Origin: a virus
Reading direction: 5' to 3' (one strand)
IMG/VR virus record: IMGVR_UViG_3300045988_137393
Length of the DNA stretch: 64,000 bases
Part shown: piece after piece, positions 55,907 through 56,899 of the stretch
How positions within the stretch are numbered: position 1 is the stretch's first letter
How the letters are laid out: every line of letters begins with the position of its first letter
The notes under the pieces: model-generated
Databases searched by the model: none
What the model was told of the DNA's origin: nothing
The model's input: only the letters and a program-made list of their open reading frames with translations
Made by a program: the position numbers and the translations under genes

Positions 55907-55994
55907 AGTCGCATTGAGCAGGCTCAGTCTACGCTTTTTTAAGCGGTTGTGAATTAAGCACATTTGAGAAGTGGTTCGATTCCACTTGCGACTT
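55907..55994 (+). ncRNA. tRNA-like element A (88 nt): canonical acceptor and T arm, aberrant centre
   Basis: Acceptor AGTCGCA/TGCGACT (7 bp) and T arm AGTGG-TTCGATT-CCACT are canonical. The interior holds GAG-CAGG-CTC, CGCTT-TTTT-AAGCG and TGTG-AATTAAG-CACA hairpins in place of normal D and anticodon arms. Confidence 0.5.
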
Positions 55995-56048
55995 TACCAA
56001 AAAAATAATTATATTGCACTCATGCGTTAAATGAGAGAAGGAGACATT

Positions 56049-56846
56049 ATGTTAAAATCTGAAAAATTCTACTCAAAAACTAATTCTTTAAAGGACACAA
56101 CTTTCGACTTTGCAGGACACGTTAGAACTTTAGTTCGTAACACTGAATTATCACGGATGCAGGATAAAAAATCATTCAAGGATGGTAAAAAAGCATTAGA
56201 GGATGCACACGCTGATATTGACGTTATGACTTGTGACGCTAGTATTATCAATCAGACTTTAGGTAACGATGCAGGTCAATTCATCAAAGACCGTGAAGAG
56301 ATTATTGCTTTAAAAGATGAAATTGCTACACTTTTACCGATTGACAACGTGACCGCACTTTGTCCAACTGACCGTGTACATATTACTTTGATGGCTCATG
56401 CTATCTATAAAAATGTACAGCTGGATGCTGATATTTTCGACACTGAAAAAGGCGGTGTTGATATTTCTAAGGCAGTACAGGTTTACTATAACAAAGGTTC
56501 TATGAAAGACTTAAAAGATGCTTTACGTTCTGTATTTAATAAATTAATCGGTTCTGAAGGTGATCACTTCTACGGCATTAAAATAAAAAAGTCCGATTTT
56601 ACAGATAAGGATCTGCGTAACTTCCTTGCAACTTTTGGCGGTTCTGCCAAACGTGAACAATCTAAGTCTAAGAAGGATGGAGTAGAAATTGTAAAATTTT
56701 CCGACTTTAACTATACAGACAAGTCAGGCAATAAAAAAGTACAGATTGCAGCTTTTACAACTCTTTGTGCAGTTGTTCTTGATAATGCGTCAAAACATGA
56801 GGTTATTAAGCCGGAAACTACAGAAGAGAAAACCGAAACAAAATAG
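56049..56846 (+). CDS. Hypothetical protein (265 aa), first gene of rightward arm
   Basis: RBS GAAGGAG lies 7 nt before the ATG at 56049. The gene is bracketed by tRNA-like elements A and B. Confidence 0.75.
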   Translation: MLKSEKFYSKTNSLKDTTFDFAGHVRTLVRNTELSRMQDKKSFKDGKKALEDAHADIDVMTCDASIINQTLGNDAGQFIKDREEIIALKDEIATLLPIDNVTALCPTDRVHITLMAHAIYKNVQLDADIFDTEKGGVDISKAVQVYYNKGSMKDLKDALRSVFNKLIGSEGDHFYGIKIKKSDFTDKDLRNFLATFGGSAKREQSKSKKDGVEIVKFSDFNYTDKSGNKKVQIAAFTTLCAVVLDNASKHEVIKPETTEEKTETK

Positions 56847-56899
56847 GATGATACTGCATAAGTAGTAGGTGTGCAGGGTTCGACTCCCTGCTCATCCTT
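56845..56899 (+). ncRNA. tRNA-like element B (55 nt): D-armless mini-tRNA overlapping the stop codon
   Basis: Acceptor AGGATGA/TCATCCT, T arm GCAGGG-TTCGACT-CCCTGC and arm TACTG-CATAAG-TAGTA. There is no D arm. Confidence 0.5.

Follow-up and report, generated by a model that had tools for sequence, protein, structure and literature searches.

tRNA-like elements on either side of an early gene of human-gut phages as candidate RNA-processing signals

We analysed a locus in a 64,000-nucleotide (nt) stretch of viral DNA, IMG/VR record IMGVR_UViG_3300045988_137393 (the whole stretch is called the window hereafter), at which a single protein gene stands between two tRNA-like elements, A and B, that do not decode. 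The window is part of a low-G+C tailed phage. Up to ~52.7 kb its genes lie on the minus strand and include those for terminase, portal, tape measure and integrase, with six tRNAs dispersed among them; from 53.5 kb onward the genes lie on the plus strand. A strong terminator (54439-54462) is followed by ~1.45 kb free of open reading frames (ORFs), element A, the gene for a protein of 265 amino acids (aa), element B and a string of small genes, which include those for a helix-turn-helix (HTH) regulator and a ParB-like protein. The features on which the analysis turns are listed here.

55907-55994, plus strand: element A, an 88-nt non-decoding tRNA mimic
55907-55913 and 55987-55993, plus strand: acceptor stem of A, 7 bp, AGTCGCA/TGCGACT
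55915-55926, plus strand: reduced D-like arm of A, GAG-CAGG-CTC, with a CAGG loop
55928-55930 and 55967-55969, plus strand: tentative 3-bp central helix of A, UCU/AGA
55932-55945, plus strand: hairpin 1 of A, CGCTT-TTTT-AAGCG, with a U-rich loop
55948-55962, plus strand: hairpin 2 of A, TGTG-AATTAAG-CACA, whose loop contains UUAA
55970-55986, plus strand: T arm of A, AGTGG-TTCGATT-CCACT
55994, plus strand: discriminator of A, T
56019-56035, plus strand: leader hairpin CTCAT-GCGTTAA-ATGAG, directly 5' of the Shine-Dalgarno sequence (56036-56043)
56049-56846, plus strand: the flanked gene (265 aa, from the ORF list), first gene of the early or regulatory plus-strand module
56845-56899, plus strand: element B, a 55-nt D-armless mini-tRNA, from sequence and minimum-free-energy fold
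56845-56851 and 56892-56898, plus strand: acceptor stem of B, AGGATGA/TCATCCT
56852-56867, plus strand: small hairpin of B, TACTG-CATAAG-TAGTA
56873-56891, plus strand: T arm of B, 6 bp, GCAGGG-TTCGACT-CCCTGC
56899, plus strand: discriminator of B, T
56923-56937, plus strand: small hairpin GGC-TATAAGTAT-GCC, ahead of the next Shine-Dalgarno sequence (56946-56952) and its ATG (56958)

An earlier note on this DNA had described both layouts, and both are present: A combines an acceptor stem and a T arm with a TTCGATT loop with three small central hairpins, and B starts within the stop codon and consists of an acceptor stem, a hairpin with a CATAAG loop and a T arm. B begins at the A of the TAG stop codon (56844-56846), a two-base overlap. 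The further statement that the pair flanks the ORF exactly holds for the 3' side alone, because 54 nt separate the end of A from the ATG at 56049, a gap that accommodates the leader hairpin and the Shine-Dalgarno sequence. The start at 56049 agrees with the Shine-Dalgarno spacing and with the N termini of homologues. For each element the minimum-free-energy fold is the proposed structure, with z = -2.8 for A and z = -3.7 for B.

Both elements share with tRNA a 7-bp acceptor stem and a T stem that closes a 7-nt TTCRANY loop (the T stem of B has 6 bp), and they depart from tRNA in the remainder. In A, hairpin 1 has a stem of 3-5 bp and a U-rich loop of 4-8 nt that vary by clade and do not make an anticodon arm; hairpin 2 lacks U33. 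Its D-like arm has a stem of 3-4 bp and a loop of 4-5 nt, (C)CAGG, as against the 7-11-nt loop of a D arm. B has no D arm, and between acceptor and T arm its versions carry a hairpin with a 6-nt loop or no hairpin at all, in place of an anticodon arm. The stems of A and B are ordinary and local, A has U-A and B has G-C at position 3-70, and neither discriminator is followed by CCA, the trailers being TTACCAAAAA and TTAACTTTTAAA. The UCU/AGA helix in the centre of A is paired in 95% of cells, with a C-G to U-A double change in one lineage and U-G in four rows; by closing off hairpins 1 and 2 it may make a forked 'anticodon arm'.

Sequence and structure searches set A and B apart from known RNA families. 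The Rfam tRNA model (RF00005) misses both at its gathering score of 29 bits and also at E<=10 in a 3-kb search; the six canonical tRNAs of the window score 49-69 bits on the same model. Rfam 15 families, including the Bacterial Y RNA (YrlA), gave no relevant match near A or B at E<=10, nor in 52000-64000 at E<=1, and nothing for the elements emerged from the complete set of scans (3 kb at E<=10, the whole window at gathering scores, 52-64 kb at E<=1, and 31 loci). ARAGORN, which the earlier note had recommended, did call A, as 'tRNA-???' with a 2-nt anticodon; it made no call for B, and it found no transfer-messenger RNA (tmRNA) in the window. For the motif GGTTCRANTCC, 0.1 occurrences would be expected in 64 kb and six are observed, of which four belong to true tRNAs and two to A and B. 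Motif counts, folds and the compensatory changes described below exclude a chance origin of the two elements. An intrinsic terminator at either position was also considered and rejected: a scan of 54300-58200 returned four terminator-like sites, none of them at A or B.

To follow the elements through evolution, loci were gathered from viral and metagenome collections by way of the protein family, which was traced to 38% identity; the relatives are IMG/VR and human-gut metagenome contigs of 75-215 kb. Of 99 loci, 86 carry element A, each in exactly one copy that in every case lies on the coding strand, 52-108 nt upstream of the same 265-aa gene; protein identity among A-carrying loci falls as low as 33%. 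The covariance model R1, derived from 23 distinct A sequences, scores A at 98.4 bits, its sole strong match in the window. In a plain MAFFT alignment, which was not fitted to structure, the proposed partners pair in 92.7% of cells, compared with 29-46% when they are slid by 1-3 columns, and double substitutions occur in 21 of 26 pairs, among them all seven of the acceptor and four of the five of the T stem. Covariation is similar on a model-fitted alignment of 36 distinct sequences, where G-U pairs occur in the plus-strand sense only; the structure is thus that of the RNA of the coding strand. Searching in the opposite direction, from the motif of A in IMG/VR, yielded 25 true A elements, and the gene follows in 24 of the 24 loci that could be assessed. 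The centre of A is more pliable than its ends: a 67-nt deletion form without hairpin 2 occurs in more than 10 loci, and in the three most distant loci (L037-L039, 38-40% identity) mini-tRNAs of 42-48 nt, built like B, take its place. The D-like loop keeps GG, a candidate for the tRNA-elbow contact. Represented by 36 distinct sequences with strong covariation, A is well supported as a new family of structured RNAs in human-gut phages, one that Rfam lacks.

Element B is far more diverse. At least eight unrelated sequences occur in its position (AGGATGA.., AGGATAA.., AGGATAT.., GGTCAC.., GGTATA.., AACCAT.., AGGTG.. and GGGATAG..), which overlap the stop codon or follow it by 0-17 nt and carry an insert of 9-27 nt between acceptor and T arm. 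Pairing holds without exception at acceptor positions 2-6 and along the whole 6-bp T stem in 11 sequence families, and several pair types are used; these pairs were counted on hand-registered segments, as the variable length of the insert had put the 5' acceptor strands out of register in MAFFT. The acceptor/T-arm minihelix is therefore the only part kept in every version of A and B, whereas the centre can be deleted or replaced. The earlier note had held that a lack of conserved acceptor and T-arm pairing in related phages would mark the elements as decayed tRNA pseudogenes. Both sets of pairs are kept through many double substitutions, so that the pseudogene reading is out. As a side observation, five loci (L080, L082, L086, L088 and L092) keep the 5' acceptor strand and T arm of B ~20-80 nt past the stop; in place of the 3' strand GATGGTT they have GATGCATT or TATGCATT, and the gene that follows is a different one. 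The joint change points to a recombination junction inside B and places mimics at mosaic boundaries.

In one group of relatives B gives way to a ribozyme motif. Ten loci (L021-L024, L066-L070 and L076) carry, in place of B, a 10-bp hairpin followed by a type III hammerhead with the complete core GUC / CUGAUGAG / CGAAAC. The flanks of this exchange are unchanged, with the coding end upstream, and downstream a hairpin and Shine-Dalgarno sequence that align with those of the window. The hairpin downstream of B is likewise kept in B-type and hammerhead-type loci, with altered stems such as AAGC/GCTT and AGGC/GTCT. At L021:3821-3872 the motif aligns over its full length to Rfam Hammerhead_3 (RF00008), with every core base (CUGAUGA...GAAA, triplet GUC) and helices I-III, at 23.6 bits and E = 0.0039 in a 161-nt local scan; helix II has 2 bp and helix III 4 bp. 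A structural descriptor of the hammerhead recovers the 10 loci and further viral-contig loci, compared with 0-1 matches in 566-kb shuffles. Five hammerhead variants in viral contigs carry compensatory changes, with UUACGG/CCGUAA versus UGCAGG/CCUGCA in helix I and GCG/CGC versus GGG/CCC in helix III. The window itself holds no ribozyme by Rfam (the whole window at gathering scores, 52000-64000 at E<=1). Elsewhere among the contigs, two further sites belong here.

L110 (unrelated viral contig), 4111-4130 and 4711-4730, minus strand: two type III hammerheads (elements ~4107-4155 and ~4707-4755), each 15-20 nt before the next ribosome-binding site
L039, 3216-3284, plus strand: pistol ribozyme, Rfam RF02679, 67.6 bits against a gathering score of 34.5

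The two hammerheads of L110, which are of the same family, bracket a 172-aa ORF. The L039 pistol ribozyme lies in the spacer between two small genes of an early operon headed by a 40%-identical homologue of the flanked gene. Judged by sequence, homologous early operons carry tRNA mimics, hammerheads and a pistol ribozyme in their spacers.

We favour, with somewhat better than even confidence, the reading that A and B are cis-acting tRNA mimics, phage counterparts of the t-elements of plant mitochondria, which offer cut sites for host RNase P and RNase Z and so define the ends of this mRNA. Four observations support processing. The acceptor/T-arm minihelix, which is the minimal substrate of RNase P, RNase Z and the CCA-adding enzyme, is the only part universally kept. 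B is exchanged for a hammerhead between the same flanks. The trailers of A and B resemble those of the six real tRNAs, in all of which T directly follows the discriminator and no CCA is encoded, as is the case in A (discriminator T, then TACCA) and B (discriminator T, then TAAC); in Bacillota, CCA-less tRNA precursors are matured by RNase Z. Finally, the discriminator of A is followed within 0-3 nt by the start of a small hairpin in no fewer than nine clades, and the sequences of these hairpins are unrelated. The earlier note's proposal of tRNA punctuation thereby gains partial, indirect support from minihelix retention, the ribozyme exchange, the CCA-less U-trailers and the hairpin after A; cleavage itself, with the enzymes that act, the cut positions and the effect on expression, is what we infer.

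According to this processing model, both elements would lie within the rightward early transcript of a tailed phage whose genome is put at ~164 kb. Each element would be cut at its 5' border by host RNase P and behind its discriminator by RNase Z. Cleavage by RNase Z at 55994/55995, after A, would give the mRNA of the 265-aa gene its 5' end, where the hairpin that follows A would become a 5'-terminal stabiliser and may protect the cut mRNA from 5' exonucleases. The RNase Z cut after B (56899/56900) would create the 3' end and separate the mRNA from the downstream genes; mini-tRNA B could then stay on the mRNA as a stable 3' cap, by analogy with the hammerhead loci. In these, cleavage would fall just after the 10-bp hairpin, so that the upstream mRNA would end in a stable structure, and the subclade would thus do the same job without host enzymes, by a stable hairpin and a self-cleaving hammerhead.

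Several points weigh against this reading. RNase P cleavage at the 5' border of B would, in the clade of the window, take away the UAG stop codon, so that either RNase Z would be the relevant enzyme there or a stop-less mRNA would result. The central hairpins of A, its loops (UUUU..., UUAA) and the linkers GUCUA and UUURAGA are conserved beyond what a signal for RNase P or RNase Z needs, and A is bound to a single gene family. A descriptor scan and R1 located no further mimic in the other spacers of the 12-kb plus-strand module or of the loci, where they returned only AT-rich false positives. In several clades the gene is followed by a hairpin alone or by no element at all, and some versions of B have a broken 3' acceptor strand. 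The candidate L021 hammerhead scores below the Rfam gathering score of 48.5 and is missed in a 44-kb scan. A weak promoter-like sequence, TTGCGA-18-TATATT (55986-56015), overlaps the 3' end of A and could start transcription between A and the gene. A wider form of the idea, genome-wide punctuation by mimics, was rejected, the window and the loci having no extra copies.

The features that exceed a plain cut site might instead belong to an RNA that acts in trans. A, and possibly B, would then be a stable tRNA-mimic RNA that forms a ribonucleoprotein with the 265-aa protein, or that serves as decoy or inhibitor of a host factor that recognises tRNA (a tRNA-targeting defence nuclease, for example, or a tRNA-modifying or CCA-adding enzyme), and processing would merely mature it. 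Such a role would fit the strict coupling of A to one protein family down to 33% identity, the conservation of its unpaired nucleotides and loops, the GG of the D-like loop, which could form a tRNA elbow, the place of the gene as first early gene, a typical counter-defence position, and the confident but unmatched fold of its product. We consider it a minority possibility. Several lineages retain the gene with the centre of A deleted or missing, B can be exchanged with a ribozyme, the 265-aa protein matches no PADLOC or other family, and no 7-nt anticodon-like loop is conserved, which argues against a decoy for anticodon nucleases. Another unlikely reading takes A and B as structural modules that are not cut at all, either nuclease-resistant folds that protect the sides of the cistron or insulators of translation, with B perhaps a partial transcription stop. 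Both elements do fold stably, only a plain hairpin stands at the position of B in some relatives, the GC-rich T hairpin survives in versions of B whose acceptor strand is broken, and a T-rich stretch lies 3' of B. However, a stabiliser has no need of a TTCRANY T-loop and an exact acceptor/T-arm geometry, which are kept across very different sequences; the terminator scan does not flag B, and the hammerhead that substitutes for it is predicted to cut RNA rather than merely to fold.

An autoregulatory circuit, in which the 265-aa protein would bind tRNA and use A and B as operators to limit the translation or stability of its own mRNA, has a model in the action of threonyl-tRNA synthetase (ThrRS) on the thrS leader. 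The strict linkage of gene and A, the tRNA-like shapes on both flanks, the closeness of A to the ribosome-binding site and the conserved leader hairpins would agree with it, yet B is lost, broken or swapped for a ribozyme while the gene persists, A stands 52-108 nt from the start codon behind variable spacers, and no RNA-binding fold or domain is recognisable in the protein; we hold this to be quite improbable. Decoding by a non-canonical tRNA, such as a suppressor or frameshift tRNA, is effectively excluded and retains only a very small probability. Phages with recoded stop codons carry suppressor tRNAs, ARAGORN lists A as a tRNA of unknown identity, and in some clades hairpin 1 has a 7-nt loop, UU-UUA-NN, with UUA as 'anticodon'. 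Against this stand the lack of an Rfam tRNA match even at E<=10, a hairpin 1 whose stem (3-5 bp) and loop (4-8 nt) change between clades, a hairpin 2 without U33, the absence of both D arm and anticodon loop from B, and long ORFs that are normal in the standard code. Descent from tRNA by decay is effectively excluded as well, with barely any probability left, whether the elements are taken as pseudogenes, as attP-type remnants of integration or as chance hairpins. The many tRNAs of phage genomes can decay and an integrase gene lies at 41027-41998, but the elements are 14 kb away from it, each acceptor stem has both of its strands and these co-vary, which would not hold for an attP copy of a host tRNA end, the motif is far more frequent than chance predicts, and massive compensatory covariation goes with conservation to 33-44% protein identity.

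The processing model has relatives in several known systems. In animal mitochondria, tRNA-shaped units between coding regions are the RNase P and RNase Z cut sites that release mRNAs, and D-armless or truncated shapes are tolerated; there the units are working tRNAs at nearly every gene, whereas here two non-decoding mimics flank one gene and six real tRNAs lie elsewhere. In mascRNA/MALAT1 and MEN-beta, RNase P and RNase Z cut a 3' tRNA-like structure, which sets the 3' end of the upstream RNA and frees a small RNA that receives CCA. The mascRNA/MALAT1 case is eukaryotic and nuclear, with an upstream RNA protected by a triple helix, whereas in the phage the mini-tRNA may itself remain on the mRNA. 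Phage precedents include the RNase III sites of T7 early mRNA and the RNase P-processed C4 RNAs of P1/P7 and CI RNA of P4, where end hairpins stabilise the products. Like A and B as proposed here, these are structured phage signals that recruit a host endonuclease, either for cleavage of polycistronic RNA or for maturation of a small RNA, but the T7 sites are RNase III hairpins, C4 and CI have an acceptor-like stem only, and in no case do two tRNA mimics enclose a protein gene. The 3' tRNA-like structures of turnip yellow mosaic virus (TYMV) and brome mosaic virus (BMV) and the tRNA-like domain of tmRNA, which serve replication, translation and ribosome rescue, have a pseudoknotted or split acceptor and a (C)CA end and are aminoacylated. 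They share with A and B a non-decoding mimicry built on the acceptor/T-arm stack, whereas the stems of A and B are ordinary, CCA is not encoded after them and G3-U70 is absent; among the relatives, the Rfam tmRNA model produced only a 17-nt T-arm match in one.

The earlier note had called the arrangement undescribed for a phage protein gene. Our full-text literature searches agree, as they returned no description of non-decoding tRNA mimics that flank a phage protein gene, nor of an exchange of tRNA mimic and ribozyme at one locus; the note had left two close precedents unnamed. One is the t-elements of plant mitochondria, tRNA-like folds with GGTTCRANYCC from which RNase Z and RNase P make the 5' and 3' ends of mRNAs (Forner et al. 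2007, PMC1920247). Some t-elements extend over the end of the reading frame; for nad6 and ccmC the cut at a t-element removes the stop codon and yields stop-less mRNAs, and plain acceptor-like stem-loops can substitute for t-elements (PMC1920247). A and B correspond to them in the non-decoding fold, the GGTTCRANYCC T arm, the acceptor stem and a position directly before or after a protein gene on the coding strand. T-elements, however, are organellar relics of resident tRNA genes, whereas A and B belong to a double-stranded DNA (dsDNA) phage and their cleavage is predicted; A, moreover, is an 88-nt family with two extra conserved hairpins that stays with one gene over deep divergence, and B is a D-armless minihelix with a 6-bp T stem. 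The other precedent is a set of prophage genes flanked by hammerheads, which were read as chopping long transcripts into single-gene mRNAs and three of which were cleaved in vitro (Perreault et al. 2011, PMC3088659). L110 shows the same bracketing in short spacers, and the L021-type loci have a hammerhead at B's place; those prophage hammerheads cleave themselves, whereas in the window tRNA mimicry would bring in host enzymes to make the cut. Candidates labelled 'tRNA-like' appear in a 2023 catalogue of viral structured RNAs, in generic terms only.

The product of the flanked gene has homologues only in gut metagenomes and viral contigs, and no match in Pfam, PHROG, NCBIfam or PADLOC. AlphaFold models it with a pLDDT of 90.5; neither Foldseek nor a PDB profile search gave a significant PDB match, and Foldseek reported marginal similarity to two uncharacterised viral proteins in BFVD. 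In the leader of the gene, the pairing of the hairpin at 56019-56035 is kept with altered sequence in other clades (CCCAC/GTGGG, CCTAT/ATAGG, CCCAT/ATGGG), and the folds of this hairpin and of that at 56923-56937 are thermodynamically not unusual. Within 56016-56035 two mutually exclusive hairpins can form, GCA-CTCA-TGC or CTCAT-GCGTTAA-ATGAG, and both are kept in other clades with different sequences, a hint of a switch. A similar hairpin with a GCGTTAA loop occurs at 55758-55795. At the other end of the elements, a trailer UUUAC(C)A with a run of A recurs after A- and B-type elements of unrelated sequence in many loci (55995-55999 in the window; examples are TTTACCA, TTTTACCC, GTGACTTTTAC and GATGGTTTTAC), and may be part of a nuclease recognition site. 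Two further sets of features complete the window.

55815-55872, plus strand: weak candidate early promoter/operator, TATACA-17-TACAAT (9/12 consensus), with tandem CACATTACAATAA boxes and the palindrome TTGTAAATTATTACAA
35661-47081, minus strand: six canonical tRNAs (Trp, Pro, Glu, Met, Pro, Asn), CCA-less, singly between genes and unclustered

In the promoter region, the palindrome and the two tandem boxes (55827-55872) overlap TACAAT -10-like hexamers upstream of A, and look like operators at an early promoter. If this promoter were used, A would fall within the 5' leader; in the consensus scan, promoter-like sites are not enriched over shuffles. Further upstream, the ~1.45 kb at 54463-55906, between the terminator and A, contain no convincing ORF, no notable repeat and no Rfam match (55000-55906 at E<=10, the whole stretch at E<=1); this region could be an origin, a regulatory region or a source of unknown RNAs. 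The distant relatives L037-L040 likewise have 0.8-1.6 kb without called genes upstream of the flanked-gene homologue. Three of them share a motif upstream of their respective mini-tRNAs (L037 ~775-810, L038 ~1465-1510, L039 ~800-845) that consists of a stem P1, a bulge A(G/U)UGAGA, a 4-bp P2 with an AAAA loop, the return of P1 and GAAC, as in GGTATAGTGAGAGCCTAAAAAGGCATACCGAAC; it has compensatory changes in P1 and P2 and matches no Rfam family. Among the canonical tRNAs, tRNA-Met (40030-40104) and tRNA-Glu (39111-39183) bracket a block of two ORFs, and the 830 nt from tRNA-Asn to tRNA-Pro (46175-47007) have as their sole minus-strand ORF of at least 50 aa a 50-aa ORF with a TTG start (46668-46820).

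The contig OCSG01000004.1 (327,761 nt) contains the locus twice in the same orientation (L042 and L043), most simply explained as a concatemeric assembly, and the spacing of 163,563 nt suggests a genome of ~164 kb. The locus has no nucleotide or protein match among 50,697 deposited phage genomes and no relative among 185,579 reference genomes, so that the host can be judged only from distant relatives of the portal protein (<=29% identity), all of which come from Bacillota phages. The host is thus probably a member of the Bacillota, with which the strong Shine-Dalgarno sequences agree; the long ORFs of the window read normally in the standard code.

A broader picture, which we put forward as speculative and rather unlikely, would have phage early operons use interchangeable 'cut here' cassettes, tRNA mimics that work through host RNase P and RNase Z, and self-cleaving hammerhead or pistol ribozymes, for which host enzymes are dispensable. 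Phage ribozymes, long without an explanation, and the mimics would then be two solutions to one task. A, with its conserved and apparently forked centre and its constant company of one early protein of novel fold, might in addition be released as a stable trans-acting RNA, either as partner of this protein or, towards a host factor that recognises tRNA, as a decoy. The role of many self-cleaving ribozymes of phages and prophages is largely conjecture, and the exchange of mimic and hammerhead provides a direct and testable equivalence, in which the same RNA ends are expected. The mini-tRNAs of 42-55 nt could be natural parts for RNA engineering in Gram-positive bacteria. 'tRNA-???' calls in phage genomes, moreover, are not necessarily pseudogenes. 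Should the processing of A and B be confirmed, the use of tRNA-shaped processing signals would extend beyond mitochondria and nuclear long non-coding RNAs to dsDNA phages, and phages would be seen to keep 'dead' tRNAs for their shape alone.

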